Virus record (IMG/VR): IMGVR_UViG_3300043395_000803
Span: 1 to 63,789 of that record
Direction: 5' to 3' (one strand)
Origin: a virus
Lineage: Duplodnaviria; Caudoviricetes
Length of the DNA: 63,789 nt
Each line of letters opens with the position of its first letter. Position 1 is the stretch's first letter. Made by a program: the position numbers and the translations under genes. Positions 1 to 55,336 of the stretch are shown piece by piece. A model generated the notes under the pieces. The model was not told where the DNA came from, ran no database searches, and saw only the letters and a program-made list of their open reading frames with translations.

Positions 1-329
1 CGTTGGTGTCCGTCAACCAGTGGTTGATCGTGTAACCCTCGGGGATCGAACCGTTGTTCTTCAGCGCGTTGATGTCGTTGTCGGCGGTCGCCACGCGGAG
101 TTCGGTCTCCAACAGACGGGTCGCAACGAATTGCAGTGAAGGCGGAACGATCAGTTTCCGGGGCTTGGCAGCGATCAGCAGACCACGTTCGTCCGTCCAC
201 GCTGCGATCTGGATCACGGCGTTTTCAAGGGACGTTTCGTTGAGGTCAGCACCCACGGTCGGGCGGTTGCTGTTGGTGCCACCAGAGATCAGCGGATGCG
301 CCGTCGAGAACAGGCTCACACCGTCGCCG
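1..329. repeat. Terminal overlap, copy 1 (matches 63461-63789); circular assembly overlap
   Basis: 329-nt direct repeat of the window end, differing at positions 50, 149, 161, 209 and 212; lies inside the capsid gene. Confidence 0.95.
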
Positions 330-736
330 TAGGTCACGGCGGAGTTGAAGCCTTGGTTCAGGATGGCCGCAGCCTTGACCTGCTTGGTGTAAGCCATAGC
401 ACGGGCCAGAGCCTTGGTGTAACGGGCCGACAGAGAGTCGTACAGGTTGTCTTCCATCGCCTCTTCGGTGATGGAGAAACCCATAGCGATGGTCTCGTGG
501 TTGTACCGTGCAGTCCAGGCTTCTTGCGCGTTGTCATACGCAATGGCTTGGCCTTCAGGCTTAACCGGGGCGGCAGAGAAACCAGCCAGTTTGGTTTCTT
601 CTTCGAACGAACGCTCGGAAGTCTCGGTTTCGTAGATTTCCTTGTGTTCTTCGCCGTAACGCTTGTACTCCATGCCAAACAGGGCGTTCAGACCCGGCAG
701 GAGTTCCTTCAGTAGTTGGGCACGAGAAATTGCCAT
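1..736 (-). CDS. Major capsid protein, N-terminal part (continues across the junction to 63288; ~302 aa)
   Basis: ATG at 736 with GGAG RBS; MAISRAQLLKELLPGLNALFGMEY...SERSFEEE...EEAMEDNLYDSLSARYTKALARAM, a Mu gpT-like/HTVC010P-like capsid signature; missed by the ORF track because it runs off the end. Confidence 0.93.
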   Translation of the reverse strand, partial: MAISRAQLLKELLPGLNALFGMEYKRYGEEHKEIYETETSERSFEEETKLAGFSAAPVKPEGQAIAYDNAQEAWTARYNHETIAMGFSITEEAMEDNLYDSLSARYTKALARAMAYTKQVKAAAILNQGFNSAVTYGDGVSLFSTAHPLISGGTNSNRPTVGADLNETSLENAVIQIAAWTDERGLLIAAKPRKLIVPPSLQFVATRLLETELRVATADNDINALKNNGSIPEGYTINHWLTDTN

Positions 737-749
737 TTTGAATTACTCC

Positions 750-1625
750 TTACGCAAGCGCCGTAGCGTATTGATACGAGTGCCAGCCCTGGTTCCACTT
801 CACCAAGACTTCAGGGAAGCCGGTAAAGGTGAAACTGCTACCAGCGGTAGAAGCGGTCAGCGTCTTCGCCACGGTGACGGTCGTGCCATTCACGTTGGTC
901 ACATAGTTGAAGTCGCCAGGGGTTCCACCAGCAGTTGCATCGGGGCAGACCACCGCCATACCGGCCTGAAGGCCAGTGACAGCAGCGTCCAGCGTGATGG
1001 TCGTGGAGGCAGAAGTACCCGTGCCCGACACGGAGTAAGCCGTTTCAGGGACCACAGCAACGACGCGGAACGGCAGCGAACTGGTCGCCACACGGACGTT
1101 GCCGGTACCGTTGGTCGGGCCGTCACCAGACACAGCCATCTTGGAATTGCCCGTGACGGTGCTACCGGCAACGCCGGTAATCGCGTACACGTTGGTTCCA
1201 ACGAACGACTGGTTGGCATAGCCAATGGTCGAAGCGGTGTTGCTCTCGGTGGAGGTTTGACCAACCATCGCCACCTTGAACAGTGCCGAGGGATCATCCA
1301 CCACAAAAGCCACGATGTCGTTAGCCAGGATACTACCGGGGTAGTACTGGGCGAACAACTTCTGACCCGTCGAGGGGTTGGTGTAAGAACATCCGACAAA
1401 TACGCCGATAGCGCCAGCGATGACCGAGGTCGGGCTGGTTGCGGCGGAATAGCCGGTCTTGATGATGGTTCCGTCCGTCGTCAACTGCAACAGGTCGCCA
1501 TTGAACAAGGCGGTGCTGTAGTTTCGAGCAATCGGAATTTGTCGGATTGCTCCAGCATACGGTAGGCCATTCAACTCGTTGATGGCTTTGAAACCGTAGG
1601 GAGCGTCAACAACAGGGTATGCCAT
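750..1625 (-). CDS. Capsid decoration / minor head protein
   Basis: 291 aa, beta-rich, MAYPVVDAPYGFK... N-terminus, directly upstream of the capsid gene. Confidence 0.7.
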   Translation of the reverse strand: MAYPVVDAPYGFKAINELNGLPYAGAIRQIPIARNYSTALFNGDLLQLTTDGTIIKTGYSAATSPTSVIAGAIGVFVGCSYTNPSTGQKLFAQYYPGSILANDIVAFVVDDPSALFKVAMVGQTSTESNTASTIGYANQSFVGTNVYAITGVAGSTVTGNSKMAVSGDGPTNGTGNVRVATSSLPFRVVAVVPETAYSVSGTGTSASTTITLDAAVTGLQAGMAVVCPDATAGGTPGDFNYVTNVNGTTVTVAKTLTASTAGSSFTFTGFPEVLVKWNQGWHSYQYATALA

Positions 1626-1644
1626 TTGTGACTCCTAAGATGAT

Positions 1645-2091
1645 TTAACCACGTCCGAACTTCACCTCAGAACGCCGCTCCTTGAAGACGGGCATCCGGG
1701 GATCGTTCTCGCGCATGAAGGCGTTGTCGACCGACTGCATCTGCCCATCAGTTTGACGCTGATAGTACGAGTTGCGTTGTTCGACAAACTCTTTGGGTGT
1801 TTTGCAAAGCAAGAGTCCACCAATCTCGATGCTATCTGGGAACCGGGGCTTGTCCCCAGTTGCCATGATTTGGATTTCGGGATGCTCAGAGGCTTTTACA
1901 GGCTCCCAACCTTCGCGGAGTTTTGCGGAAACATGGCCTGGATCGGCAGTACCCAAAGTACTGATTCGAATCCAACGAAACTCGTAGCCGTCCTCGGGGT
2001 TGGGGCTCGGCAGCAGTTCAGGAAGCATCCACTGCTTGGGGCGCTCCATCTTTGCTCGGGTATCCAATTCACGGGGAGTACGTTCAGCCAT
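1645..2091 (-). CDS. Conserved head-module protein of unknown function
   Basis: 148 aa with FRWIR...LREGWEPV...IGGLLLCK motifs; between scaffold and decoration genes. Confidence 0.75.
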   Translation of the reverse strand: MAERTPRELDTRAKMERPKQWMLPELLPSPNPEDGYEFRWIRISTLGTADPGHVSAKLREGWEPVKASEHPEIQIMATGDKPRFPDSIEIGGLLLCKTPKEFVEQRNSYYQRQTDGQMQSVDNAFMRENDPRMPVFKERRSEVKFGRG

Positions 2092-3031
2092 TTTGTTTCC
2101 TCATTTCTTCCGCAACCGCACGGGCGTACTGCTCATTCGTCAGTCCGAGCCGCTTGGCGATGTTCACTTGGGACTTGGTCAGCACGATTTTTTTGGGCGC
2201 TGTGCTTCGGTTCGCGGGTGCAACTACCGGTGATTTCTTTGGCTTCTCGGAGGTAAACGCATCCGGGAAGATTTGCCGCATACGTTGGTCGATGCGGTCA
2301 AAGTATTCATCACTCGCCAGTTTTACCCCACTTTCCACAAGTTTCCGATGCAGTGTCAGAGCAACAGCCGTCATCTCCTCGTTTGGCCCAAACCAGGGAT
2401 TGGCATCTTGCCACGCGGCTGATTTGGGATCGAGGACTACCGGCTCTTGTTGAACTGGTTGTGGTGCGGGTTGTACCACAGGTTTTTCTGCTTGAACAGG
2501 GGCCGGTTTGAAATTATTCACCCGGTCTGCTTTGATCTTTGCGGCAGTCAAAGCCTCCTGGGCTTCAACAATTCCGTCCGAATCACCTGACTCAAACGCA
2601 ATCTTGTACTTGCGCTTGGCCTCTTCCAACTCGTTTGCAACAACCTTTTTGGCCTGCTCCAAGAGCACTTGTTGGGTCTGCCCCTGCGAACTTTGGAGTT
2701 TTTTGTTCTCCTCTATAAGTTGTTGAGCAAGGCGAAGCGCCTCTTCGCGCTCACGGAAAGCAGCCTCTTTTGCCCGGCGCTCTTCGTGATAACCCTTAGA
2801 AAAGTGCTGGATGCGCTTTTTGACCCCTTCGGAATACTGGGCCAGTTCATCATCCGTAACTTCTGCCGGGGGTTCCTTCATCGGGGGGCGATCACGATCC
2901 TCTAAGGGAGTATCGTCAATCACCTCAACCTCGGGCTCTGCTTCGCCCTCGACTTCAAACTGGATTTCTTCCTGCTTCTTGTCCTCGACCTTTTCGTCCG
3001 GGAACTTGAATGCTTCTTGATCAAGCGGCAT
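2084..3031 (-). CDS. Capsid scaffolding protein (putative)
   Basis: Start reassigned to MPLDQEAF (AGGAGG RBS); acidic N-terminus, coiled coil, C-terminal QVNIAKRLGLTNEQYA helix; position in head module. Confidence 0.75.
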   Translation of the reverse strand: MPLDQEAFKFPDEKVEDKKQEEIQFEVEGEAEPEVEVIDDTPLEDRDRPPMKEPPAEVTDDELAQYSEGVKKRIQHFSKGYHEERRAKEAAFREREEALRLAQQLIEENKKLQSSQGQTQQVLLEQAKKVVANELEEAKRKYKIAFESGDSDGIVEAQEALTAAKIKADRVNNFKPAPVQAEKPVVQPAPQPVQQEPVVLDPKSAAWQDANPWFGPNEEMTAVALTLHRKLVESGVKLASDEYFDRIDQRMRQIFPDAFTSEKPKKSPVVAPANRSTAPKKIVLTKSQVNIAKRLGLTNEQYARAVAEEMRKQNG

Positions 3032-3041
3032 GTGATCCTCC

Positions 3042-3446
3042 TTAAACGCGAGAGATGCCACGCGGGTCTTGCACCACGGCTTCCACGCTGTCATCGTTGA
3101 TGATGCGGAACTCACGCCCGTGAATCTTCACGCGGGTGCCCGTGTTGGGTCGAACCAAAACAAAGTCGCCCGGTTTGCACGATGGTCCACTGGGGAATCG
3201 GGTTTTATCGCCGTAGGCGTCCGGCCCCATCTTCATCACAAACAGCACTGGAGACATGACTTCCTCGAAGTGCATGGTCTGCCCTGACTTGACGATCCCA
3301 CTCTCATACTCACGGTCGATCTCTGGGAGAACGCACAGCAAGTGGTACGTTGCGGGTTCGGGAAGTTGCTTGGCCTTTTCCTCTGCCGTTTCAGGCAGGG
3401 TGGTCGGCACGGCGTCTTCGCCGGTACTCAGGAGGATTTCACTCAT
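3042..3446 (-). CDS. groES: GroES/Cpn10-like co-chaperonin
   Basis: LPEP..YHLL...SGIV...VMKMGPDAY...CKPGDFVL...GTRVKIHGREFRIINDDSVEAVV matches the Cpn10 pattern. Confidence 0.85.
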   Translation of the reverse strand: MSEILLSTGEDAVPTTLPETAEEKAKQLPEPATYHLLCVLPEIDREYESGIVKSGQTMHFEEVMSPVLFVMKMGPDAYGDKTRFPSGPSCKPGDFVLVRPNTGTRVKIHGREFRIINDDSVEAVVQDPRGISRV

Positions 3447-3642
3447 CTTCGTTTTGCTCCATCTTTCGCACGAGGTCGGTGATAAACATGTGTGCGGTTG
3501 AGAGACCCCGGACCTCACCACACATACTGCGGTACTCGGCATAGTCCCGAGCCGCACCATCTACGAGGGCACGGGCGATGGACTCCCGGTGCTCCTCAAT
3601 GTCTTTCAATACCACGGAAAACGCAGTGGTTGCCATGATCAT
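3439..3642 (-). CDS. Small conserved head-module protein
   Basis: 67 aa with DYAEYRSMCGEVRGL motif; overlaps neighbours. Confidence 0.7.
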   Translation of the reverse strand: MIMATTAFSVVLKDIEEHRESIARALVDGAARDYAEYRSMCGEVRGLSTAHMFITDLVRKMEQNEDE

Positions 3643-4580
3643 TCCTTTGCTAAATGTTCTCGATACACATCCTGATTGATGGTTTCCGTTTTGTAATCAA
3701 TGCCACAGAACGCAGCATAGTCAGCAATCGTCCTCTGATTGCCAAGCCCATAGATTCCTTTGAGATCGCCAGTCAATACCTGCCTGACGCGCTTGAGAGA
3801 GTGCAACTTCAACTTCTCCCAGTTCTCATGGCGCTTCTTATCCGCGTGGCATTCCCAATGCGCCACTCGGTGGTCGCGGTCCCAGTTGTGATAAATGGGC
3901 ATGTTGGGGACATAGAAAATGTCCCAGCCGTGCGTGAATGAGCGCAGCGTGATGGTCTGCTCCTCGCCCTCAAAGTAAATCTGAGGGTCGTATGGAATCT
4001 CATCAACAAATTTGCCCCTGGAGAACAAGCATCCAGCGGCTGTGTACCACGCCTTTACGGGCCTTTTGATTGGCTCTGTCTGCGCCGCCACCATAAGAAT
4101 CAGCGCATCGTCACAGAACTTAACCGGAGGCTTGAAGATGTGGACCTTTGCCCCGTCTTCAATTTCCCTAACCGGCAAACTTTTCTCAAACCAAAACTTC
4201 TTGGGATACCCAGAGATGATTGGCTTGCTGAACTGCTCTTCCAGTGACTTGGCCTGCCCAATAAACCACTCATCCCAGTGCATGTCAAAGAGCATGTGGG
4301 AGTCAATCTGAAAGTACCAATCTTCTCCCTGGTAAAGCGACATCGCCAAGGCTCTGGCCCAGCAAACGCCGCGCGAGTCCTCGGGTTCAACGCCGATATA
4401 CCGGATGTACTTGCGTGCAAGAAGGCCCGGGTTAATTCTCCTGGCCTGCTCTCTTTGTTCTACAACACCGAATGTGATTCTGTTTGGGTACTTTGCCTTG
4501 GCTAACGCATCAGCAATTGTGGCTTTCAACAGGTCATCCTGATAGGCCGCAACGCTGATAAAGATCGTTTCCGTGCTCAT
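3639..4580 (-). CDS. GT60-like GlcNAc-transferase (Skp1-hydroxyproline/polypeptide alpha-GlcNAc transferase family, GT-A fold)
   Basis: TIFISVAAYQD, RITFGVVEQ, SRGVCWAR, YFQIDSHM (DSH metal motif), VDEIPYDPQIYFEGEE, RSFTHGWDIF, IYH: the motif series of the Gnt1-type family. Confidence 0.88.
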   Translation of the reverse strand: MSTETIFISVAAYQDDLLKATIADALAKAKYPNRITFGVVEQREQARRINPGLLARKYIRYIGVEPEDSRGVCWARALAMSLYQGEDWYFQIDSHMLFDMHWDEWFIGQAKSLEEQFSKPIISGYPKKFWFEKSLPVREIEDGAKVHIFKPPVKFCDDALILMVAAQTEPIKRPVKAWYTAAGCLFSRGKFVDEIPYDPQIYFEGEEQTITLRSFTHGWDIFYVPNMPIYHNWDRDHRVAHWECHADKKRHENWEKLKLHSLKRVRQVLTGDLKGIYGLGNQRTIADYAAFCGIDYKTETINQDVYREHLAKE

Positions 4581-5071
4581 AAGCCAAAGAGTTGAATCGT
4601 GTTCCGAACCGGCGCGTCGGGCGTCGTTTGAAACACGCAATGATCAAGCGGCGTGACGATGTAGTTGGCGTGATTGAACTCGGGTTTCAGGCACTTAACT
4701 TCAGCGCCTTCTTTCCAAGCAAAGTACCCGCCGTAGTTCTCATCCCAATACTCATTGAGATGAATGGTCATGCCAAACTTCCATGAGTGATCTTGGTGCC
4801 AAGTGATGTAACTGCCCGGCATCATGCGGTGATAGACAGCGTAGATGTTGGCGTACTTGTTCAACTCTGGGTGAGCAACTTTGGCTTGAGCCGCCACATC
4901 TTGTCTCAAGTCTTCAGTCAGATCAAAGACCAAGATGGCCGCGCTTGACCTGATCAATTCCTTTTGCCATGAGGTGTGGTTTGTCCGGCAAGAAGATTGA
5001 TCCTTTGTGTATGCGTGCAACCGCTCAATGAGCGGCGCACTCAACACATCTCTAAAACTTTGTACGCTCAC
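4577..5071 (-). CDS. 2OG-Fe(II) oxygenase, prolyl-4-hydroxylase-like
   Basis: ITWHQD (HxD), TIHLNEYWDENYGG, distal H (DHCV) and 2OG-binding R (VRNTIQ); GTG start overlaps portal stop. Confidence 0.85.
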   Translation of the reverse strand: MSVQSFRDVLSAPLIERLHAYTKDQSSCRTNHTSWQKELIRSSAAILVFDLTEDLRQDVAAQAKVAHPELNKYANIYAVYHRMMPGSYITWHQDHSWKFGMTIHLNEYWDENYGGYFAWKEGAEVKCLKPEFNHANYIVTPLDHCVFQTTPDAPVRNTIQLFGL

Positions 5072-7488
5072 TGCTTCACCGCGCCTTTATTGGGGCGGGG
5101 CTTCATCACCGTCTTGATCATTTCGGCGCGAAGTTTCTTGTCGTTCTGCTGTGATTGAGCAGCAAGGCGGGCTTGCTCCTTCTGGGTTTCGATTGCAATG
5201 CGCTCTCGCTCAAGACGAATCTTTTCCTGAGCAATGGCGAAGTCGCGCTGGCTGTCCTGCTCTTTACGTTGCAGTTCTTGCATACGCAATTGCAGTTCTG
5301 CCTGCTGCATTTGCAGCATCGGGTTCTGCGCCATCTCTTGAGCCTGGGCTTGTTGAGCCTTGCCCATGTTGGACTGAAGCAGTTGCTGTGCGGCCTGAGC
5401 AACCAGACGGGAGATTTGCACCTCTGCTTGCTCATCCAGTTCAGCATCGGGCGGAGTAAGCGGAACGCCCAACTGTTCTTCAACCTGTTGACGGTACGCA
5501 AAGGCCATGTGCTCTGCGATGTGAGCCATGATGGCTGCGCCCATCTGTTGGGCCATCGGAGATTGACCAATCATCTGAGCAACCATCGGGTCTTGCATCA
5601 GCGCCATGTGAGTAGCGATGTGCGCCTGATGATCTTGGTAGATGAATGCCTTGGTCGGCTTGCCGGTCAGGAACGACATGTTCTCCGACACCGGATCGCG
5701 AGGCTTCTGGTCTTCCTCAATCGGAACCAACTTCTCGGCATTCTTGATACCAAGAACTTCCAACATCTGCCGGTGCAGGTTGGGTAGGTCATAGATTTGC
5801 GGAGCACCTTGGGCCAACTGGAGAGCGGCTTGATACTGCATGATCCGCTGCGCCATCGTGGAGGCGTTGGGATCAGAGACCGGGATCACCTCAACAAGAT
5901 CGTAGTCCTCTTGTTTTGCAGCACGATTTCCTCCCACGGGGATGTAGGAGTAATCCGGCGGCATGTAGTCCCGGATGATCTGCTTGAGGAGTTTGAACTC
6001 CATCTTCAGGCTTGCATGCACGCGAGCCTGAACAGCCGACATCGTCTTGAGTTGACGCTCAAGCAGAGCCAGGGTAGTACCCACCGGGGCTTGAGCCGAC
6101 ATGTCGCTGAACTTCAGATCAGCAATAGCCGCTAGGCGACGGCCTTCGTCGGTGATCTTGTCAAGGAGAACCGCGAGAACTTGGCTCGGTTCCTTGTACG
6201 GCAGCGGCATGATGTTGTCACGCAGCGCGCCAGACGGGATATCTACATCTCTAAATTCACCTGGGGCAATCGGCGTGTCGTCACCCTTGACTCGCAGACC
6301 CCGGGTCTTCAGCCCTCCGGGGAGGTTGGACAGTGTTCCCGCGTCTACCAGTTGGCGAATAATCGCGGTCCCTGCACGAGCATACCCACCAATAATATGA
6401 ATAAAACCAAGGCCATAAGCACCAAAACCAGGGATGTAAGTGTACTGAACGAAGTGCTGTCGCTTGAGTTTTCGGCGGTCTGATTCTTCCCAGTTTCGTC
6501 GGATAGACAGAACGGTTTGGGTTCCCCGCTCGATGGTGATGACGTAGGGTAGTCCGATTCCGGTTTCTTCTCCATCATCGTCTGTATCCTCATAGCCCTT
6601 CAGATTCCAATCGACGTGAATCTCAAGCACCTGATACCGATCATCATCGGTGAGGGTGTAGCCCTGTTCCTCAGCCTTCTTCTTCTCAATGTCTGTAAAG
6701 ACTCTGACCGGCTCGCCCAGTTCTGTTTGGCGATAGAAGCCAGCGGCCATCAACTTGTTCAGATCATTCTCAGTCTTACGCATCACATGGGTGACGCGCT
6801 CGGCTGTATATACATTAGCCGCTCCGTAGGGAATGATCAAGTCTTCTGCCTGGATGTAAGCAGCCACTTGTCGGCCAAGTGAAGGATCAAAATAAACCTT
6901 CTTGAACGCTGCACCAGCAAGACCGAGGGAGTACAAGAGTCTTTCATGCTCAGGACGGTACTCAATCATCTCGTCCGTGAGCCGGTAGTTCATGTCGTCC
7001 TTGACACGGTCGGCAGACTCTTCGTTCTTCCGAGTTACTTCACCAATGATCTGGGTCTTGACAGGACCCTGAGCCGGAAAAGTCTCCGTGATCATCTCGG
7101 ACTGAAAGCGAATGGCCGCTTCGGTCAGGATCGGGGAGTACACACCGCAGGCGCCAAGCCAGGGTTCTGCTCGTTCTTCGTACTTCATGCCAAGGACTTC
7201 GAGTCCCTTGACATACATGTCGGCCCAGTCTTTGCGACTGTTGATGTCCGCGTCTACAAGACCAACAAGATCAGAGGCCAGAGACTGAAGGTCGCCTTCT
7301 TCCATGTACTCTGCGAGGTTGGCATCAAAGTCTTCGGCAGTCTCTGCTTCTGGCTCCAACTCAATCTCCAACCCGCCCATCCCGATCTTGACAGATTCGG
7401 GGTCTTCAATTTCAATCTCAACCATTGGTTCATCTCCCATCTCTTCTGGGAGGAGGGGAACCATTGCCGGGTCGATATTGGTTGCCAT
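5068..7488 (-). CDS. Portal protein
   Basis: ~806 aa; SRKDW, GAAFKKVY, GFGAYGLG, APVGTTLAL motifs and Q-rich helical C-terminus; follows terminase. Confidence 0.9.
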   Translation of the reverse strand: MATNIDPAMVPLLPEEMGDEPMVEIEIEDPESVKIGMGGLEIELEPEAETAEDFDANLAEYMEEGDLQSLASDLVGLVDADINSRKDWADMYVKGLEVLGMKYEERAEPWLGACGVYSPILTEAAIRFQSEMITETFPAQGPVKTQIIGEVTRKNEESADRVKDDMNYRLTDEMIEYRPEHERLLYSLGLAGAAFKKVYFDPSLGRQVAAYIQAEDLIIPYGAANVYTAERVTHVMRKTENDLNKLMAAGFYRQTELGEPVRVFTDIEKKKAEEQGYTLTDDDRYQVLEIHVDWNLKGYEDTDDDGEETGIGLPYVITIERGTQTVLSIRRNWEESDRRKLKRQHFVQYTYIPGFGAYGLGFIHIIGGYARAGTAIIRQLVDAGTLSNLPGGLKTRGLRVKGDDTPIAPGEFRDVDIPSGALRDNIMPLPYKEPSQVLAVLLDKITDEGRRLAAIADLKFSDMSAQAPVGTTLALLERQLKTMSAVQARVHASLKMEFKLLKQIIRDYMPPDYSYIPVGGNRAAKQEDYDLVEVIPVSDPNASTMAQRIMQYQAALQLAQGAPQIYDLPNLHRQMLEVLGIKNAEKLVPIEEDQKPRDPVSENMSFLTGKPTKAFIYQDHQAHIATHMALMQDPMVAQMIGQSPMAQQMGAAIMAHIAEHMAFAYRQQVEEQLGVPLTPPDAELDEQAEVQISRLVAQAAQQLLQSNMGKAQQAQAQEMAQNPMLQMQQAELQLRMQELQRKEQDSQRDFAIAQEKIRLERERIAIETQKEQARLAAQSQQNDKKLRAEMIKTVMKPRPNKGAVKQ

Positions 7489-7496
7489 GTTAATCC

Positions 7497-9002
7497 TCAA
7501 TAATACGCCGCCTTGCGCGGCTGAACGAAGGGTTCATCTCTCTCGTCTGATTCGAGTTTGATCAAACCACCGGACCTAAAGCGAAGCATAGCCTGTACGG
7601 TCGAATCCACCAAGTCGTCATGCTCCGCATTTGGGAAAGCAGCCATCTGTTCGACCACCTCGTGCGCCCATCTCCGGTCTGGAATCCACACTTTTCCTGA
7701 TCTGAAGATGTCGGCCACTGAACTCAGGCGGGCAAACTTGTCATTCGGGACTTTTTTCGTCCCACGGGTGGGGGTGTACTCCGAAACAATGAGCCCCATC
7801 TGCCTCAATTCGTAAATAAGCGGGGCTCCGGCGGCTTTTGCCTCGATGAGACACACATCGGGCTCCCACTCCTTGTACATCTCGTAGGCTTTGTCCTTCA
7901 GTTCGGGAAATTCCATCCGTTTTTGGAAGGCATCCAACAAGATTAGGTGGGGATCGCGTTCATTTTCGTCCTTATTGAAGACTCCCCACGTCGTACAGGC
8001 CGAAAAGTCGGACCTTTCGTTCTTTGTGAAGGCCGTATCCCAAGATTGGATGATGAATTCGCACTGTGGAGGGTCATCTTTCTCCCAAATCTGCCACCAC
8101 TCCCGCTTGATCATTGCCCCTTCTTCGCCAGTTGGCGTTTGCTGATATTGAGCGTTCCATTTGGAGATCGGAAGTTCGGCTTTTAGGTCTTCTAAGAGGT
8201 TTAGCGGCCAGAATTCAGGCCAAAGTGGGTTCCCAGAAGGAAGAATCGCGGGGAATTCGATGACTTTCCACTCCTCATCCTTGCCTCTTTTGGCCGAATC
8301 CTTGAGAACCTGACCAATCAGGTCCCGATCCGACCACCTCGTAGCGATGATGATGATCGCTCCCCCTGGTTGAAGGCGCTGTCTGGGGCCAGAGGTGTAC
8401 CACTCATACGTTGAGTCATAAATTCCGGGGTTCCCAGCGGCCAAAGTCGCCTCTTGTTCCGAATGTGGATCATCAATGATCACCACATCCGCACCTCTAC
8501 CGGTCATGGTACCGCCTACACCAATAGCGAAATACTCCCCACGGTCATTCACAGCCCACCGGCCCGCACTCTTGGAGTCCTGCCTCAACCTTACATTCGG
8601 GAACACCTCGTGGTACTGCTCCGAATCCACCAAATTTCGGACCTTCCGGCCAAACCCAACAGCGAGTTCACTCGTATTTGAGGACTGCATCACCTTCTTG
8701 TCAGGGAACTTTCCAAGGAACCAAGCCGGAAACAGGAACGAACCAAACTCCGACTTCGTGTGCCGAGGCGGCATGCTAATAGCCAGCCTCTTAATAGACC
8801 CATCTGCTATACCCTCAAAGGCTTTTGCCACCACCGCATGGTGCCTCCCCGAGATAAACCCAGGCCACATCTTCTTCACAAAAGCCAAAAACGACCCCTG
8901 GCACTTCTCCCTCTCAAGAGCCATCTTGTACTCGTTGACCTGATGGAGCAACTTCTCCTGATCGGCCACACTCAACTGACTGATCAAATCGTCTAACTTC
9001 AT
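7497..9002 (-). CDS. terL: Terminase large subunit
   Basis: MPPRHTKSE Walker A variant, GRGADVVIIDDP Walker B, ATRW, QSWDTAF nuclease, IEAKAAG, HDDLVDS; start reassigned to MKLDDLI. Confidence 0.95.
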   Translation of the reverse strand: MKLDDLISQLSVADQEKLLHQVNEYKMALEREKCQGSFLAFVKKMWPGFISGRHHAVVAKAFEGIADGSIKRLAISMPPRHTKSEFGSFLFPAWFLGKFPDKKVMQSSNTSELAVGFGRKVRNLVDSEQYHEVFPNVRLRQDSKSAGRWAVNDRGEYFAIGVGGTMTGRGADVVIIDDPHSEQEATLAAGNPGIYDSTYEWYTSGPRQRLQPGGAIIIIATRWSDRDLIGQVLKDSAKRGKDEEWKVIEFPAILPSGNPLWPEFWPLNLLEDLKAELPISKWNAQYQQTPTGEEGAMIKREWWQIWEKDDPPQCEFIIQSWDTAFTKNERSDFSACTTWGVFNKDENERDPHLILLDAFQKRMEFPELKDKAYEMYKEWEPDVCLIEAKAAGAPLIYELRQMGLIVSEYTPTRGTKKVPNDKFARLSSVADIFRSGKVWIPDRRWAHEVVEQMAAFPNAEHDDLVDSTVQAMLRFRSGGLIKLESDERDEPFVQPRKAAYY

Positions 9003-9379
9003 TCCAAATTCCTGAAGTTGATGTACACAGGCCGGATCGTCCTCCCAGCCCCCTCCATCTTCTTCACCACCCCCAACTTCACCAGCCGGTTCACGATCTT
9101 GTGAACCCCACTCACCCCGCTTCTCCCAGTTACATACGCAATCTCCCTCACAGTCGGGCTGTACCCAAACCGCTTCCACCACTCATCAATCGCCAAAAAC
9201 ACTTCCTTCTGCGCCGGGCTCATCTCCATCTCCATACACTCACTCTCACTCCTGTCCCCCCTGCGAGCCCTCAATTCCCCTATCTGAACCCGTTTCCGCC
9301 TCTTATCCACATACTTATCCACAGAAACTGGGGATAACTTTTCCTCTCCGGCTGGTGCGATCTGGTGTACTTCAGTCAT
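8999..9379 (-). CDS. LexA-type winged-HTH DNA-binding protein (no peptidase domain); start uncertain, possibly 9235
   Basis: MSPAQKEVFLAIDEWWKRFGYSPTVREIA...SGVHKIVNRLVKLG...RTIR matches the LexA N-terminal domain. Confidence 0.8.
   Translation of the reverse strand: MTEVHQIAPAGEEKLSPVSVDKYVDKRRKRVQIGELRARRGDRSESECMEMEMSPAQKEVFLAIDEWWKRFGYSPTVREIAYVTGRSGVSGVHKIVNRLVKLGVVKKMEGAGRTIRPVYINFRNLE
9303..9337. promoter_or_regulatory. Cluster of three DnaA-box-like 9-mers
   Basis: TTATCCACA at 9303-9311 and 9315-9323 (perfect); inverted TTATCCCCA at 9329-9337 (8/9). Confidence 0.65.
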
Positions 9380-9410
9380 GCAAAGTGAGGAAAACGTTGT
9401 GATGAAACAA

Positions 9411-9438
9411 CAAACTAATGGAAATCTTCATTAGTTTG
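9411..9438. repeat. AT-rich palindromic site, copy 1
   Basis: CAAACTAATG-GAAATCTT-CATTAGTTTG; 27 nt identical to 27761-27787. Confidence 0.85.
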
Positions 9439-10252
9439 AGGTGGGTGCCTCATTTTTAGGCAAATCTAACTTTGACGGGGGGTCTCCCAAAAATGAGGGG
9501 GTGGGAGTCCCGCCAGAAAAAGAAGGGGGGGTGTCCGCAGAATTTTCGTCGTCAGCAGAGGAGGGGAAATCGGAAATGGGGTGGGGGGATGATCGTTCGT
9601 GGGGGATAGTATGTGTAGGGGGAGGGGCCACCATATCTGACGCATCGGGGGGTGGGGATAGGGTGGGGTCGACCTCCCCCCGGCTTCCGGAAAGTTCAGC
9701 CAGGAGGGAATCCGCTGCGCTGTCGATAACCTCGGCGTCATCCGCCTGGGATTTCAGCATCTCGCGCAACTGGGCCATGACTTGTGCGCGCGCGTCATCA
9801 CTTGATCGAATGGTGCGAACCTCTTTCCGCTCAGTAAATGCGGCCACCTCGGTTACCGACCCCAACACTTTGGCCGCCGCAGTAATTTGGCCGGGCTTAG
9901 ATTCCGGGTCGGTAATTACTTTCACCAGGGAATGAATCACCAGGGAACGCAGTCCTGCGGGGGTTTCATATTCCGCCGCCCTGATTGCGTGTTCTATTGC
10001 TTGGATCTCTGCACTCACCCTAGGATCGGCTGCGATGCGGTAAGGGTCGGCGCGGAGTGAATGCGGGCTGGCGTCGGCTTTGTATGCTTTGCGGTAGGCG
10101 TCCGCTTTGGTGTTTCCCTTCGCTACCTCCAGGGCGAACTTTCGCTGTTTGGGTGTTAGTTCCCGGTTTACCTCTCTTCCAAGGATTACCGAAACGGGAA
10201 CTGTATCTAGTGCGTCCTTCAATTGCTTTCGGGATAGTTTAGGGGGTTTCAT
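9431..10252 (-). CDS. terS: Terminase small subunit (putative)
   Basis: LTPKQRKFALEVAKGNTKADAYRKAY HTH typical of TerS; upstream of terL; Pro/Ser-rich tail. Confidence 0.75.
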   Translation of the reverse strand: MKPPKLSRKQLKDALDTVPVSVILGREVNRELTPKQRKFALEVAKGNTKADAYRKAYKADASPHSLRADPYRIAADPRVSAEIQAIEHAIRAAEYETPAGLRSLVIHSLVKVITDPESKPGQITAAAKVLGSVTEVAAFTERKEVRTIRSSDDARAQVMAQLREMLKSQADDAEVIDSAADSLLAELSGSRGEVDPTLSPPPDASDMVAPPPTHTIPHERSSPHPISDFPSSADDENSADTPPSFSGGTPTPSFLGDPPSKLDLPKNEAPTSN

Positions 10253-10349
10253 ACTGAGCCGCTGCCCTTCGGGCTGAACCAAACCGCCGCCATCATAGGT
10301 GAACAAGTGGAGAACATCAATAGCCCGCGCCTATCGCCCGGCCCGCACC

Positions 10350-10393
10350 GATAAAAACAATTCAATGGACTGGTGCATCCTGACTGCTACATT
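10350..10393 (+). promoter_or_regulatory. Candidate sigma70 early promoter
   Basis: A-rich UP-like tract, TGGACT (10366-71), 16 nt, extended -10 TGcTACATT (10385-93), at the start of the + strand early cluster. Confidence 0.45.
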
Positions 10394-10439
10394 GTCACCC
10401 GTGCTGACTGTTAGCACCAACCCGAAAGGATCGCTCACT

Positions 10440-10688
10440 ATGTCATCCCTCATCGTTGTCACCTACCGCAAGCCCACCGACACAAGGGGCGCGCGGCTGC
10501 GCGTGACTTGCGGCGACTTCAAGCCCCAAACCCTGGCCTATCCCTACGGATATGACGGGTTCCGGGCATTTGAATGCGCCGCCCGCACCTATGCCGACTC
10601 TATGGGTTGGCATGGAATCAATCTCGCCGGCGGTTGGATCGGCACGGGTTCCGCCGGGTTCGCCCTTGTCCCCTACTCCACCAAGTGA
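10440..10688 (+). CDS. Early hypothetical protein
   Basis: GAAAGGA RBS; VTYRKPTDTRGARLRV motif seen in small early phage proteins. Confidence 0.7.
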   Translation: MSSLIVVTYRKPTDTRGARLRVTCGDFKPQTLAYPYGYDGFRAFECAARTYADSMGWHGINLAGGWIGTGSAGFALVPYSTK

Positions 10689-27767: not shown

Positions 27768-27787
27768 TGGAAATCTTCATTAGTTTG
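27761..27787. repeat. AT-rich palindromic site, copy 3, at a convergent gene junction
   Basis: AAACTAATGGAAATCTTCATTAGTTTG; each arm supplies AAC-TAA ending one of the two convergent genes. Confidence 0.85.
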
Positions 27788-40222: not shown

Positions 40223-43200
40223 TCAGGCCTTTCCAATAATTTGCATCAGTTCTTCGATGGTCGCAGCAGGATTTTCCTGTGACAACGCAATGATTTGATC
40301 CACGGCATCCTGCGTCATATTTTCGTCCGCAGACCCTTGTAGCGCAAGTTCCATAGCATCCCGGGCTTTTGCCGCGCGGCCTTGGAAATCCGTCACGTCC
40401 GCCATTGACTGGGCGCGCTTGCCCGGCTGTCCGTACTTCATTGCCTCGTAGTAAAAGGCTTCGTACTTTGGAAGTTCGGACAGTTGGCTTACCTGTTGCT
40501 GCCGCATAGGCATAGCCCGAGGTACGGCAACAGGCGTAACCCTTGGCGCCACCTTGGGCGTCACCACCGGAGTCACTTTCGGGGTGACCACGGGAGTTAC
40601 TGTCGGGGTGACCGTAGGAGTAACGGTAGGCGTGACAGTGGGTGTCACGGTTGGCGTTACGGTGGGGGTAACTGTCGGCGTAACCGTGGGAGTCACCGTC
40701 GGAGTGACCGTGGGCGTAACGGTAGGCGTAACCGTTGGTGTGACGGTAGGCGTCACAGTCGGGGTCACCGTGGGAGTTACGGTTGGTGTCACTGTTGGAG
40801 TAACAGTGGGCGTCACGGTGGGGGTGACTGTTGGTGTGGCCGTCGGCGTCACAGTCGGAGTGACTGTTGGTGTGGCCGTAGGAGTGACAGTAGGGGTGAC
40901 CGTGGGGGTCACTGTAGGAGTTACTGTCGGGGTCACAGTAGGCGTTGCCGTTGGAGTGACGGTTGGAGTCACCGTCGGTGTAACCGTTGGAGTGACGGTT
41001 GGGGTAACCGTGGGTGTGACTGTGGGAGTCACAGTCGGGGTGACTGTCGGGGTTACGGTTGGAGTGACCGTGGGTGTGACGGTAGGGGTAACCGTCGGAG
41101 TAACCGTTGGCGTGACGTCTGGAGTAACCGTAGGCGTTACTGTTGGAGTAATGGCGGGCGCAACCGTCGGCGTTATCGTGGGCGTAACAGTTGGGGTGAC
41201 AGTGGGAGTTACCGTTGGCGTAACGGCGGGGGTAACCGTTGGCGTTACTGTTGGCGTAACAATTGGAGTTACTTCTTTGGGCGGTGTTACTTCTTTGGGT
41301 ATCACATCCTCCTTCGAAACCCCAGGGGTTTGCGGGGTAGTCATAACACCTTCCTTTGGCACGCCGAGGTCACCCGCAGTCAGCACATTACCAAACATGT
41401 CCGTAAGGATAGGAGTGCCCGTTGCAATCGTGGGGCCAGTCTTGGTGCCTGTATTTAGCACCAGATCGGTCAGGTCGGTAATATCTTTTGGCAGGCGCGT
41501 ACCCGTGACCGTGACAGTTTGATCAACCGATCCAGGGATATATGGAGCAGCGTTGGGGTCGTACCCGCCATAATACTTACCCGTGATGCGGTTGTACTCC
41601 CACTGCAAATTGGGATCGTTCGGCGTCTTAGACAGTTCGGCTTCGACCAGCGGCAACCAATCGGCAAGTTGTATAGCAGCACTATAGGTATTAGCGTAAT
41701 CATCTGTCAGGGCTGCACCGCCACGCCGCACTCTATTGATAAGGTCAGATACGGTTGGGGGTTTTGTGCCTGTAACATCCCGGGCTTCTACATCAATAAC
41801 ATCGCCGGGCTTGGTGGTTGTTTGCCCTCCTGGCTTATTAAGAAGTTTGTTTATATCTTCTGCGCCCTGGGCAACCCCGCCGTACAACTCATTCCAAAAC
41901 TTAATTGCCCCGGACGGGTCTGTCTTGTACGCAAGCCGTTCTATATCTTCAGGGGTAAATGAATACCTCTGATTCCCGACCTGATAAGAAAAACTGCCAG
42001 ACGCATCTCTGGTAACCGGCACGGGCACAATCTTGCCCGCTTCATCCATGATCCCGTAGAAGATGTCACCGGTTTTGATGTTAAGGTTGACGCCCGGATT
42101 TATTTTTGTAGAGACCTTGCCATCGCCGGATGTCTGCACCATCCCATAGTCATCATCGGGATCGTAGACACTGACGCCCCCGGCAAGGGAATACACCGGG
42201 TCACTGATGATGTTTGCCGCAGTAGTTGTAGTTGGCGCTGTCGTAGGCGGCTGTGTACCCGGGGGGCGGCTTGCCATCGCAGCAGACAACTGCTGCGATG
42301 CGGTGAGGATAGCGTTCAGGTTACCGGAGGTAATTGCTTGCGCCAGAGAGACAGCACGTCCGGCAACGACGGTATCCGGGCTATCAGCCAACTGCCCAAG
42401 CGACGCCAGGGCTTGACCGTATTGGCCGTTCTGTATGGCCGTAATGGCTGAAGCCCCCTTGAGTGCGTCGCCAAAAGTAAAGTTGGTGCCGCCAATCGTG
42501 GTGTTTAGAACGTCCTTACCAAGTTCACTGCCTGCCGCCGCTGAAAGTAACGCACCCCAATTCTCGTTCTTGATAGCATTGGCAATGTTTGCGCCGGTCG
42601 AGATATTTGCAAACGTAGAAGTCGGAACACCCGCAAGGTTGCCCGTGTTGACAACTGCTCCGCTGATTGGGTCAATTGCCGTGGCAGCGCCGGACAGACC
42701 CGCGAGCGCACCTGCACCGGCGGCGATTGCCCCGAGATAGTTGCCCTGTCCAGCCTGAAATGCGGCGTTGGCAAGCATGCCCCACGGCCCAAGAGCCGGG
42801 GCAATCATTGAGAAAATGGTCCCTACGGGAGCCTTCCATTCTTCGGAATAATCAAATCCTTTTGGTTGGCCGACAATCTTACCGTCTGCACCAAATTGAT
42901 AAACGATTCCGCTATCGCCGCCGGTAAAGTAGCGCACCTCACTGCCAGTTATGTTTCCGGCGTCGTCGTATGTCAGTTTCGTCTGAAGCGGCAGTCCTCG
43001 ATCATTCTTTGTTTCTTGAAACGCCTCAAACCCGCCACCCGTGCGATTACCGGAAAAGTCATACCCAATCGGCATTGACCGCACGGTGTAGTTACCGACT
43101 TGTACGCCGGGGTCGTTGTAAGTAGAAGCCTCACCCATCAAGTTTGCCTGGGCATAACTGTTTCGTAATTGATCGGCAATACTTGGGTCTTTACTTAGCA

Positions 43201-43888
43201 GCGTGGATAACAAATCTTGCGGCTTTGCAGACGCCGCCGCGCTGATTGCTGAGGCGGTTGTGTTTTGGGTGGTCGGCGTTGGCGTGGGTGCCGTAGGGGC
43301 GGGGGTTGGAGTTGTGGGCGTTGGCGTTGGCGAAACACCAAGATCACCCGCCGTCAGTGTCTGACCGGACGTATCCGTGATGACCGGCGTCGTCGGCGTT
43401 ACTGGGGTTGGGACTGTCGGTGTGGGTGTAGGAGTAGGTGTGGGCACCGTACCTATAACCGTATCTTGCAAAATACTTTGCAAGTCCTCTGGGGTGTAAT
43501 CGCCGCTCCTATAGAGATTAAGTAACTCTTGACGGTCAAACTGTGTAGGGGCAATGGTAGTAGTTGCCGCCGTGGGGGCCGTGGTAGTCGGCGCGGTAGT
43601 AGCCGTCGTAGAAGGCGGTTGCGTACCTGTTGCCCGATAGTAATCGGCCAACGTGAAGTTGGTACCGAGGGCGCTGTTCCACTCAGAGATAGTTTGCTCC
43701 GGGCTCCACCCCTGCTGCGCTGCATACTGAAGGCCGCGCACAGTAGCAGCAGCATGATCACCGGGGCTCCCGGCGTACATATAAGACTTGAAATCAAACG
43801 GAGCCGGGGCAGCGGCCTCACCGCCGCCGACGATATTCAACAGGTCGTTTTCTGTCGGCTCGCGCTCATCGAAGTAGTTCATCGCCAT
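40223..43888 (-). CDS. Large Pro/Thr-rich (mucin-like) virion-region protein
   Basis: 1221 aa; N-terminal TTAP/PTPT tracts, central G/A-rich helices, ~60 (PTVT) repeats. Confidence 0.8.
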   Translation of the reverse strand: MAMNYFDEREPTENDLLNIVGGGEAAAPAPFDFKSYMYAGSPGDHAAATVRGLQYAAQQGWSPEQTISEWNSALGTNFTLADYYRATGTQPPSTTATTAPTTTAPTAATTTIAPTQFDRQELLNLYRSGDYTPEDLQSILQDTVIGTVPTPTPTPTPTVPTPVTPTTPVITDTSGQTLTAGDLGVSPTPTPTTPTPAPTAPTPTPTTQNTTASAISAAASAKPQDLLSTLLSKDPSIADQLRNSYAQANLMGEASTYNDPGVQVGNYTVRSMPIGYDFSGNRTGGGFEAFQETKNDRGLPLQTKLTYDDAGNITGSEVRYFTGGDSGIVYQFGADGKIVGQPKGFDYSEEWKAPVGTIFSMIAPALGPWGMLANAAFQAGQGNYLGAIAAGAGALAGLSGAATAIDPISGAVVNTGNLAGVPTSTFANISTGANIANAIKNENWGALLSAAAGSELGKDVLNTTIGGTNFTFGDALKGASAITAIQNGQYGQALASLGQLADSPDTVVAGRAVSLAQAITSGNLNAILTASQQLSAAMASRPPGTQPPTTAPTTTTAANIISDPVYSLAGGVSVYDPDDDYGMVQTSGDGKVSTKINPGVNLNIKTGDIFYGIMDEAGKIVPVPVTRDASGSFSYQVGNQRYSFTPEDIERLAYKTDPSGAIKFWNELYGGVAQGAEDINKLLNKPGGQTTTKPGDVIDVEARDVTGTKPPTVSDLINRVRRGGAALTDDYANTYSAAIQLADWLPLVEAELSKTPNDPNLQWEYNRITGKYYGGYDPNAAPYIPGSVDQTVTVTGTRLPKDITDLTDLVLNTGTKTGPTIATGTPILTDMFGNVLTAGDLGVPKEGVMTTPQTPGVSKEDVIPKEVTPPKEVTPIVTPTVTPTVTPAVTPTVTPTVTPTVTPTITPTVAPAITPTVTPTVTPDVTPTVTPTVTPTVTPTVTPTVTPTVTPTVTPTVTPTVTPTVTPTVTPTVTPTVTPTATPTVTPTVTPTVTPTVTPTVTPTATPTVTPTVTPTATPTVTPTVTPTVTPTVTPTVTPTVTPTVTPTVTPTVTPTVTPTVTPTVTPTVTPTVTPTVTPTVTPTVTPTVTPTVTPTVTPVVTPKVTPVVTPKVAPRVTPVAVPRAMPMRQQQVSQLSELPKYEAFYYEAMKYGQPGKRAQSMADVTDFQGRAAKARDAMELALQGSADENMTQDAVDQIIALSQENPAATIEELMQIIGKA
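40535..41290 (-). repeat. 12-nt coding tandem repeat encoding (Pro-Thr-Val-Thr)n, ~60 units
   Basis: Period-12 repeat whose variation is mostly at third codon positions. Confidence 0.92.
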
Positions 43889-54544: not shown

Positions 54545-55336
54545 TTATAAACCCTTTGTCAAATAAACATGCGCTTTGCGCTGTTTAATTAGTAAAACCA
54601 TTTTCTTGCTAACCCCAAATTGTTCTGCTGTTTTCAACAAAGACAAGGGGCTGTAGAAAATATCTTTCACGGTTTGCTCAGACAGTTTGGCGTTGGGGCC
54701 GCGTTTGCCCCGTTTTGATTCCGCCAGTTTTTTCAATGCTTCAACGCGGTGTGCATCCAGTATGCGCTTGGCTTGCGCTTTGCGCTCTTCGGTCATAGGC
54801 TGTTTGCGCGTGCCTTGACCTGCCTTAACCGGTGGGTACTTATCATTGAGGTGCTGCCAACGCTCTCCGCGCCGCGCATCTCGCAGCGTGTCCCTGGCAA
54901 TCTCCGCCCCAAACCGTTCCTGCACCATTTCAAGAACCGCTGAGTTTGGCTTGTCCCAGTGGGCCGGGTCGCGGATAAACGCTACCATCTCTTCGGTCAA
55001 CTTGGCGTTGTAAAGGTCTTCGCCCTTCTGCTGATCAACAGTGCCATGCTTGTGGCCGTGATCGGTTAGGTTGTAACCGCCGTCCTTGGCGTGGGCTTTG
55101 AGTTCACCAATCAGCCTGATCTCAGCAGCCCGCAGGTCTTCGATGGACGTGGCCCTGTAAGTCACCTCAATAGAGAACTTATCTGCCCCATACTTGCGCA
55201 TGGCCCGATACAGCGGCTTGTCCACATCCGTATTTGCCGCCGACAAATGCTGCCGCCACCGAACCTTAAGCGGTCCCGTCGTCAGACCGACGTACACGCG
55301 GTCATTGACTGTGTTGGTGATCTTGTAGACAAACAT
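54545..55336 (-). CDS. GIY-YIG homing endonuclease
   Basis: FVYKITNTVNDRVYVGLT...RWRQH...LYRAMRKYG...E...GYN; NAKL DNA-binding repeats. Confidence 0.9.
   Translation of the reverse strand: MFVYKITNTVNDRVYVGLTTGPLKVRWRQHLSAANTDVDKPLYRAMRKYGADKFSIEVTYRATSIEDLRAAEIRLIGELKAHAKDGGYNLTDHGHKHGTVDQQKGEDLYNAKLTEEMVAFIRDPAHWDKPNSAVLEMVQERFGAEIARDTLRDARRGERWQHLNDKYPPVKAGQGTRKQPMTEERKAQAKRILDAHRVEALKKLAESKRGKRGPNAKLSEQTVKDIFYSPLSLLKTAEQFGVSKKMVLLIKQRKAHVYLTKGL

Follow-up and report, generated by a model that had tools for sequence, protein, structure and literature searches.

The locus described here raises the question of why a tailed phage would carry, within the operon that builds its head, the genes of an oxygenase and of a glycosyltransferase. 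Both lie in a complete virus record of 63,789 bases (IMG/VR record IMGVR_UViG_3300043395_000803, hereafter the window), which belongs to an HTVC023P/Pag-Yong1-like phage whose portal protein is 38-46% identical to those of Planktothrix phage Pag-Yong1, DSL-LC04 and Pelagibacter HTVC023P/027P. They code for a small 2-oxoglutarate (2OG)-Fe(II) oxygenase and for a transferase of the GT60/PF11397 type, set between the portal gene and the rest of the head genes (Table 1). A first-pass annotation, made from the letters alone, had proposed that the two enzymes hydroxylate and glycosylate virion or host proteins, in the manner of PhyA and Gnt1 in Dictyostelium and Toxoplasma. We find that they form an accessory cassette that moves as a unit, and that the transferase co-occurs in this lineage with a giant protein containing long Thr-Pro repeats. 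The function that we favour, tentatively and with less than even confidence, is the late O-glycosylation of this repeat protein of the phage, possibly together with the hydroxylation of its prolines.

The transferase matches PF11397 with 175.8 bits against a cut-off of 21 bits (E 2.2e-51; model positions 93-350 plus 1-42) as well as phrog_24687 ('glycosyltransferase'), and 928 homologues were found at E <= 0.001. The series of Gnt1-type motifs from which the enzyme had first been assigned to GT60 (IFISVAAYQD, SRGVCWAR, QIDSH, PYDPQIYFEGEE and THGWD) is present in full and lies on invariant columns of a 31-sequence alignment, which together with the PF11397 match confirms the assignment. The invariant residues include W74-A75-R76, D93-x-H95 (the metal motif, within QIDSH), Y197-D198, E206-E207 and G218-x-D220. 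The first conserved strand (TIFISVAAY) starts at residue 4 and leaves no room for an N-terminal anchor; lacking any extension before this strand, the enzyme is predicted to be soluble. A sequence search of the PDB with the transferase profile gave no match at E <= 0.01, and no solved GT60 structure was found. Pfam lists PF11397 as 'Glycosyltransferase (GlcNAc)', and we take this family to be the one linked to Gnt1. The CAZy family GT60 covers both Gnt1, which modifies hydroxyproline in Skp1, and the polypeptide alpha-N-acetylglucosamine (GlcNAc)-transferase of Trypanosoma cruzi, and the dependence of Gnt1 on hydroxyproline is documented there (PMC6939170).

The partner gene was also correctly recognised at first sight as that of a 2OG-Fe(II) oxygenase with an HxD...H...R site. 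Across an alignment of 136 sequences, H92-x-D94, H144 and Q160 do not vary and R156 is retained in at least 90% of them, providing the iron triad (H92, D94 and H144) and the basic residue for the 2-oxoglutarate carboxylate (R156). A profile search of 1.84 billion representative proteins gave 618 relatives at E <= 0.001, mostly 160-190 residues long, and a metagenome scan with the oxygenase gave three loci only. An AlphaFold (AF2) model built from the 136 sequences reaches a predicted local distance difference test (pLDDT) of 97.8, superseding an earlier model from 12 close sequences (pLDDT 58.5). Its best Foldseek matches in the PDB (template modelling (TM) scores of 0.63-0.73, E ~1e-7, 12-17% identity) include the HIF prolyl hydroxylase PHD2, Pseudomonas PPHD (4iw3), Dictyostelium PhyA (6t8m), Trichoplax PHD and yeast Tpa1, and the fold is predicted to be a double-stranded beta-helix resembling those of prolyl hydroxylase domain (PHD) and prolyl 4-hydroxylase (P4H) enzymes. 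A sequence search of the PDB with the oxygenase profile returned chance-level matches only (E >= 0.09). At 164 residues, the enzyme falls 40-60 residues short of the PHD chains that it matched (about 200-230 residues). Its companions among viral models are small 2OG oxygenases, themselves uncharacterised, from cyanophages and from uncultured tailed phages.

Both genes are tied to the head genes by start/stop overlaps, which supports their co-expression with them. The TGA stop of the portal gene (5070-5068) overlaps the GTG start of the oxygenase gene (5071-5069), the oxygenase stop (4579-4577) overlaps the ATG of the transferase (4580-4578), and the transferase stop (3641-3639) overlaps the ATG (3642-3640) of a 67-residue open reading frame (ORF), exactly the GTGA/ATGA junctions noted in the first pass. 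The 67-residue ORF is conserved between the portal and GroES-like genes of relatives (cluster c10/c40 in related loci). After the GroES-like gene follow, on the minus strand, a scaffold-like gene, genes for proteins of 148 and 291 residues, and the capsid gene. A scan of positions 1-10500 for consensus promoters and terminators gave sites no commoner than in shuffled sequence, and no convincing signal was found inside the cassette. The G + C content of the cassette is 50.5% compared with 56.0% for the genome, lower than in 99.5% of 1248 stretches of equal size. The dip announced by the first-pass annotation is thus real, but it is modest and does not go down to 43-45%, single lines of 60 nucleotides spanning 35% to 68%, and the argument for acquisition that had been built on it was overstated. 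Because the third-position G + C of the two genes (0.61-0.63, against 0.60 for portal) matches that of neighbouring genes, composition says little on acquisition, and the dip is no evidence for a recent one.

The distribution of the cassette among relatives is more informative. Portal matches of this lineage in IMG/VR number more than 600; we sampled 80 relatives through their portal protein (58-79% identity), a set unbiased as to the cassette, of which 74 show the GroES-like gene downstream. In 71 of these, the gap between portal and GroES-like genes is 37-257 nucleotides, with room for the small ORF alone; the transferase is present in one (L245) and the oxygenase in none. The other two insertions at this junction are an HNH endonuclease (L200:3770-4381) and a GT2 glycosyltransferase (L249:4742-5482). 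The cassette is thus an accessory insertion, and the portal/GroES junction a hot spot that has repeatedly taken up glycosyltransferases. For example, L203 and L010 are 96% identical on both flanks, and L203 has 18 nucleotides where L010 has 1685 nucleotides holding oxygenase and transferase. On a portal tree of 93 rows, the presence of the cassette requires at least 7 changes, and the phages that carry it sit in several places. On the transferase tree, the seven oxygenase-linked transferases form one clade (support 98, 45-49% identity) within which the linkage is constant (7/7); transferases that occupy the portal/GroES junction without an oxygenase are spread over three other clades. Since the 1.67-kb indel between L010 and L203 is clean and the oxygenase-linked transferases are monophyletic, the pair is one mobile unit: it arose once, stayed together through about 50% sequence divergence and moves as a block among related phages, always into the same junction. 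This constancy is limited to the one clade, and in the wider survey that had been suggested the pair is uncommon. Among 80 viral loci sampled through the transferase, oxygenase and transferase directly follow the portal gene in six (L004, L009-L013), and 59 present other phage contexts. The transferase is therefore the commoner element and the oxygenase an add-on tied to one transferase clade. The cassette of L013 includes, between portal and pair, a second and larger 2OG oxygenase (3579-4472) of 297 residues that matches PF13640 with 53 bits.

A genome scan for segments rich in Ser, Thr and Pro, a check also proposed in the first pass, identified a candidate substrate, a protein of 1221 residues encoded in the block of virion and ejection proteins. 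Thr-Pro tracts occupy residues ~85-215, and about 280 residues near the C-terminus are near-perfect (TPTV)n; in total, 380 residues are Thr/Ser-Pro repeat. Because the peptide repeat is near perfect while the codons vary, it is the peptide, and not the DNA, that is under selection. No Pfam domain was found in this protein, and a protein-atlas search with its non-repeat part gave a best score of 0.79, below the useful range. Its gene is flanked by genes for 'virion structural protein', and by a 'DNA ejection protein' gene together with that of a 3091-residue 'large polyvalent protein' (27780-37055, minus strand). The latter carries an LPD38 domain (E 1.7e-42) and weak, sub-threshold matches to ParB_N and C5 DNA-methylase, and it is probably an injected multi-domain anti-defence protein.

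A 291-residue Ser/Thr/Gly-rich protein of the head module (750-1625, minus strand) was also considered as a substrate and rejected, as it has no association with the transferase. Its long (272-303 residues) and short (~190-220 residues) forms are scattered over the lineage independently of the transferase: the long form occurs in at least 10 transferase-negative relatives (L218, L268, L209, L208, L211, L207, L271, L220, L224 and L233), and L010-L012, which have both oxygenase and transferase, carry a short form of 204 residues.

For the 1221-residue protein, presence of the long repeat follows that of the transferase. An orthologue with a long repeat is found in the three transferase-positive genomes of the lineage that were examined: the window, G001 (oxygenase and transferase, 66% complete; 1283 residues, of which 438 are Thr/Ser-Pro repeat) and G002 (transferase only, complete; 1196 residues, 450 in repeat), at the same position in each. 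No such tract is present in any of seven transferase-negative genomes scanned whole (G006 and G007, complete; G008 and G009, partial; Pag-Yong1, DSL-LC04 and HTVC023P), where the longest tract in a credible ORF measures 58-64 residues. The closest complete relative, G006, which groups with the window on a portal tree of 10 rows (support 99), has at the same position a 777-residue orthologue with other repeats and no Thr-Pro repeat. No large gene was found in this slot in G007 and G008, and in G011 and G012 (95-100% complete), scanned at the syntenic slot, both the repeat and the transferase are absent. Long tracts are uncommon at this position: when loci were instead sampled through a neighbouring gene for a 618-residue protein, 4 of 80 had a tract of at least 100 residues in the repeat slot, on contigs that stop short of the portal region. 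The proposed search for Pro/Thr-rich genes thus yielded a protein co-occurring with the transferase in two independent contrasts.

Similar neighbourhoods exist outside this lineage. A Thr/Ser-Pro repeat protein is encoded within 6 kb of the transferase in 19 of the 80 viral transferase loci (L047, L062-63 and L069-84), for example a 1928-residue (SSPPS)n protein directly downstream of the transferase in L047 and (PTPTPS)n proteins in L070; linkers of this kind are common throughout some of these 19 genomes. Of seven more transferase-positive records, each scanned in full, three have tracts of 113-218 residues and three of 58-71. In bacteria, at least 583 matches to the transferase were obtained, mainly in Ramlibacter, other Burkholderiales, Thiomicrospira and Francisella, and the homologues are 38-45% identical to the phage enzyme. 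We inspected 80 of these loci over a reach of 6 kb. In 24 of them, the transferase adjoins a divergently oriented exoprotein gene whose product is up to ~1970 residues long, several being cut by the end of the locus; one exoprotein that was examined contains a two-partner secretion (TPS) domain (E 4.5e-23). Repeats of (TPAP)n, (SP)n or (TPAPTVAP)n cover at least 60 residues in eleven of the 24 exoproteins and at least 100 in seven. The genomes concerned are largely related, so that they count as few independent observations. In L090-L134 (e.g. L115:2-5761, L106:1722-5822 and L122:2-4063), from Ramlibacter, Caenimonas and their kin, the transferase stands head to head with an exoprotein bearing a repeat of 60-204 residues, and the two may constitute an adhesin-glycosylation pair.

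The transferase is most likely a cytoplasmic polypeptide O-glycosyltransferase for Thr/Ser-Pro repeat proteins, predicted to act in this phage on the 1221-residue protein. In the scheme that we propose, oxygenase and transferase would enter as a horizontally mobile cassette between the portal gene and the remaining head-assembly operon, and both would be translated late, alongside virion proteins. The transferase would act in the host cytoplasm, transferring a sugar, by family analogy an N-acetylhexosamine (HexNAc) such as GlcNAc, onto hydroxyls of Thr-Pro repeats, the phage's own (TPTV)n protein being the prime substrate. The oxygenase would use O2 and 2-oxoglutarate to hydroxylate prolines of these repeats, which would either provide additional acceptors for the sugar or make the extended chain more rigid. 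The original proposal that the pair modifies virion or host proteins is consistent with the enzyme families, the place in the head operon and the co-occurring Thr-Pro repeat protein; the donor sugar, the acceptor residue, the prolyl hydroxylation and the role of the repeat protein as substrate are what we infer.

Several observations weigh against this scheme. Some concern the substrate: 35 kb separate the repeat gene from the cassette, and it is from gene order alone that its product is probably a virion or ejected protein. Within the lineage, the association consists of two independent contrasts, both concordant (sign test p 0.5), and one joint gain plus one joint loss would account for it. 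In addition, G033, a complete and transferase-positive genome, has no Thr/Ser-Pro tract of 30 residues or more. Others concern the setting of the transferase and the part of the oxygenase. The transferase alone directly follows the portal gene in 15 of the 80 viral transferase loci, and in the other phage contexts its neighbours are not structural genes but such genes as those for DNA polymerase A, DUF3310, ParB-like proteins, integrase, ADP-ribosylglycohydrolase and HtrL/YibB-like proteins. No oxygenase was found within 6 kb in any of the 80 bacterial loci, the sole signal being one of 17.5 bits in a 72-residue ORF, and an oxygenase without transferase occurs in L086. The window oxygenase scores 22.6 bits on PF13640, under the cut-off of 27 bits, and its fold is matched equally well by the non-prolyl enzymes PiuC and PolD and by an uncharacterised Shewanella oxygenase (3dkq). 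Finally, in some distant relatives the oxygenase is joined in one protein to a Sulfotransfer_2, GT25 or luciferase-like monooxygenase domain (proteins P0187, P0207 and P0225), and the family member in L087 (3769-5516) adjoins a sulfotransferase and a carbamoyltransferase.

These latter points favour an alternative that we consider unlikely, though it merits serious attention, in which the transferase by itself glycosylates Thr/Ser of the repeat and the oxygenase tailors the sugar or sugar nucleotide, or acts as a hydroxylase on a host protein, for instance a translation factor. The fusions of oxygenase relatives, and the neighbours of distant members, whose genomic context comes from four loci (L086, L087, L171 and L172), may indeed point to glycan tailoring. 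Moreover, the nearest viral structures are the uncharacterised cyanophage enzymes, and Pseudomonas PPHD, an EF-Tu hydroxylase, is among the best fold matches. A separate role of the oxygenase is harder to reconcile with the gain and loss of both genes as one block, and the restriction of oxygenase linkage to a single, deeply diverged transferase clade argues for a joint function. The L013 cassette, with its clear second PF13640 oxygenase (53 bits), also stands against it. Close homologues of the window oxygenase all match PF13640 (12/12, best E 1e-5) with none at passing level, and some distant relatives exceed the cut-off (28.4-34.9 bits). Because the oxygenase and its close homologues remain below this threshold, we class it as PHD/P4H-like in predicted fold and not as an established prolyl hydroxylase. 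The earlier description of a prolyl-hydroxylase-like enzyme is thus retained as regards the fold, within a large family of small phage 2OG oxygenases. Prolyl hydroxylase activity is suggested by the modelled fold and by the fixed linkage to the transferase; since relatives within the family are joined to, or neighbour, sulfotransferase, GT25 and carbamoyltransferase, we infer this activity rather than assign it.

The solitary transferases also bear on the order of reactions. With the transferase standing alone in 15 loci of the lineage and in 80 of 80 bacterial loci, a strict dependence of the PhyA-then-Gnt1 kind, which the first-pass annotation had taken as its model, is not supported. Because the transferase occurs without the oxygenase in most genomes, Thr/Ser is the likelier general acceptor, and by analogy the phage enzyme would more likely use Thr/Ser, like the T. 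cruzi GT60 transferase, than hydroxyproline, like Gnt1. The oxygenase-linked clade could nevertheless be specialised on hydroxyproline, or the oxygenase could add hydroxyproline for stiffness.

A wider version of the repeat-glycosylation scheme is doubtful when taken as a whole. Here the phage would possess a 'viral mucin', a virion or ejected protein with a Thr-Pro rod of about 280 residues that undergoes O2-dependent proline hydroxylation and O-glycosylation by a cassette hopping from one related phage to another, always into the portal junction. The same transferase family would serve the Thr-Pro-repeat TPS adhesins of bacteria, and prokaryotes and their phages would be the reservoir from which the GT60 pathways of protists originated, namely the Skp1 (PhyA/Gnt1) and mucin-type pathways.

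It is rather improbable that the cassette is instead a moron directed at the host, modifying surface or secreted proteins (e.g. TPS-type adhesins with Thr-Pro linkers) or the envelope and thereby causing receptor change or superinfection exclusion. The bacterial homologues beside TPS exoproteins with (TPAP)n in Ramlibacter and relatives would fit such a role, a Burkholderiales-type host could supply these substrates, and phrog_24687 is placed in the PHROGs category 'moron, auxiliary metabolic gene and host takeover'; the junction itself is permissive, as its HNH endonuclease in L200 illustrates. The translational coupling of both genes within the late head operon and the tracking of the transferase with a phage-encoded repeat protein argue against host targets. 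Hypermodification of the phage DNA, by base hydroxylation and subsequent glycosylation in the style of TET/JBP plus glycosyltransferase, is very improbable, because the complete genome has no match at E <= 0.1 to Tet_JBP (PF12851) or to the thymidylate synthase (TS)-like hydroxymethylases (PF00303, matched in 10 of 14 control genomes) and because the listed fold matches of the oxygenase, mostly prolyl hydroxylases, include no TET, JBP or AlkB; in addition, PF11397, whose cut-off the transferase far exceeds, is a protein-glycosylating family, and the cassette lies in the head operon away from replication genes. In its favour stand the known phage DNA-modifying systems that combine a 2OG dioxygenase with a glycosyltransferase, the DNA polymerase A, DUF3310 and ParB-like neighbours of the transferase in other phage lineages and the weak, sub-threshold C5-methylase match (17.6 bits against 22) in the polyvalent protein.

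Glycosylation of the phage's own repeat protein may be compared with several known systems. It shares with the Skp1 pathway of Dictyostelium and Toxoplasma a cytoplasmic 2OG oxygenase of the PHD type, whose best fold matches include Dictyostelium PhyA, and a transferase of the GT60/PF11397 family, which in the phage is predicted to be soluble. It differs in that there is no Skp1, the candidate substrate being a long Thr-Pro repeat, in the smaller size of the oxygenase relative to the PHD chains, and in that no follow-on glycosyltransferases were seen next to the phage cassette; with the phage and bacterial transferases mostly lacking an oxygenase, a general dependence on hydroxyproline is improbable in this case. 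In T. cruzi, the GT60 enzyme acts on Thr-rich, Pro-containing mucin-like repeats, which resemble the Thr-Pro repeat of the phage. That enzyme resides in the eukaryotic Golgi and is membrane-anchored, whereas the phage enzyme is predicted to be soluble, and the two are likened here by CAZy family. Mycobacteriophages reportedly encode glycosyltransferases, beside structural genes, that glycosylate their own virion proteins; the targets are said to be C-terminal extensions of capsid and tail-tube subunits, and the transferases to belong to other families, with no oxygenase partner. In the present case, the sugars would go onto a giant internal repeat, the candidate target, which belongs to a protein of the ejection block. 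Among viruses of eukaryotes, the prolyl 4-hydroxylase of PBCV-1 is said to be a 2OG oxygenase acting on proline-rich repeat peptides of the same virus, and the lysyl hydroxylase-glucosyltransferase L230 of Mimivirus reportedly couples hydroxylation to glycosylation. Those enzymes are larger, whereas here a 64-kb tailed phage has an oxygenase of 164 residues and a separate GT60 enzyme. The bacterial relatives of the transferase recall the HMW1C/HMW1 system, in which a cytoplasmic glycosyltransferase gene likewise lies beside a TPS exoprotein gene; HMW1C is a GT41 N-glycosyltransferase acting on Asn, whereas the bacterial and phage relatives are GT60-like and the repeats are Thr/Ser-Pro. The first-pass annotation knew of no characterised phage example. 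We likewise found no report of GT60 or of a hydroxylase and GT60 pair in phages in the full-text literature, most subscription journals lying outside its scope, and the claim needs amending as regards the glycosylation of mycobacteriophage virions, which is reportedly in print. For HTVC023P-type phages, one article counts glycosyltransferases and 2OG oxygenases of eight kinds among the auxiliary genes and draws no connection between the two (PMC9599517).

Table 1. Main features of the window and the grounds for their assignment
Feature	Position	Strand	Basis or remark
GroES-like co-chaperonin, head module	3042..3560	-	phrog_3188, E 2.3e-6; annotated GroES in relatives
67-residue ORF	3439..3642	-	downstream neighbour of transferase; ATG overlaps transferase stop
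GT60/PF11397-type GT-A glycosyltransferase, 313 residues	3639..4580	-	ATG at 4580; PF11397, phrog_24687
Small 2OG-Fe(II) oxygenase, 164 residues	4577..5071	-	HxD...H...R site, AF2 model, Foldseek
Portal protein	5068..7500	-	phrog_1216; upstream neighbour of oxygenase gene
Large terminase	7497-9182	-	precedes the portal gene
1221-residue repeat protein, candidate substrate	40223..43888	-	virion/ejection-protein block; translation
Tandem DNA repeat encoding (TPTV)n	40563..41266	.	Tandem Repeats Finder; period 12, ~54 copies, 69% DNA matches

Some features of the surrounding genome may be added. The real start of the GroES-like gene is probably an internal ATG near position 3452. The longest ORF of the large terminase begins with a Gly/Glu/Trp-rich extension of about 60 residues, and because this extension overlaps an upstream ORF of 126 residues (8999-9379), the actual start is probably an internal ATG here too. 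The small-terminase-like protein (9431-10306, minus strand; phrog_51) has a Pro/Ser-rich C-terminal tail of about 80 residues, a feature shared by the near-identical contig L004. The start of the record cuts the capsid gene (2-736, minus strand), and a further ORF (63288-63788, minus strand) comes in across its end; by our count the two are out of frame across the junction, and the ends of the record may lack or repeat a few bases. Finally, a GIY-YIG-type homing endonuclease of 263 residues (54545-55336, minus strand; phrog_314/7168) is encoded directly upstream of the tail fibre/spike gene (50353-54543), whose 1396-residue product gives 10-12 repeated matches to virion-protein families.

If late O-glycosylation of the phage's own repeat protein is the correct reading, the cassette would be a mobile two-gene unit for the mucin-type O-glycosylation of a giant Thr-Pro repeat, with hydroxyproline as a possible acceptor. 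This would be a kind of phage-protein tailoring of which we found no report in the literature. It would provide a function for a single representative of the small phage 2OG-Fe(II) oxygenases, a very large family, and a class of substrates for the widespread PF11397 transferases of bacteria and phages. Such a modification could explain how long disordered linkers are protected or stiffened, or how adhesion and the exposure to immunity or proteases are altered.

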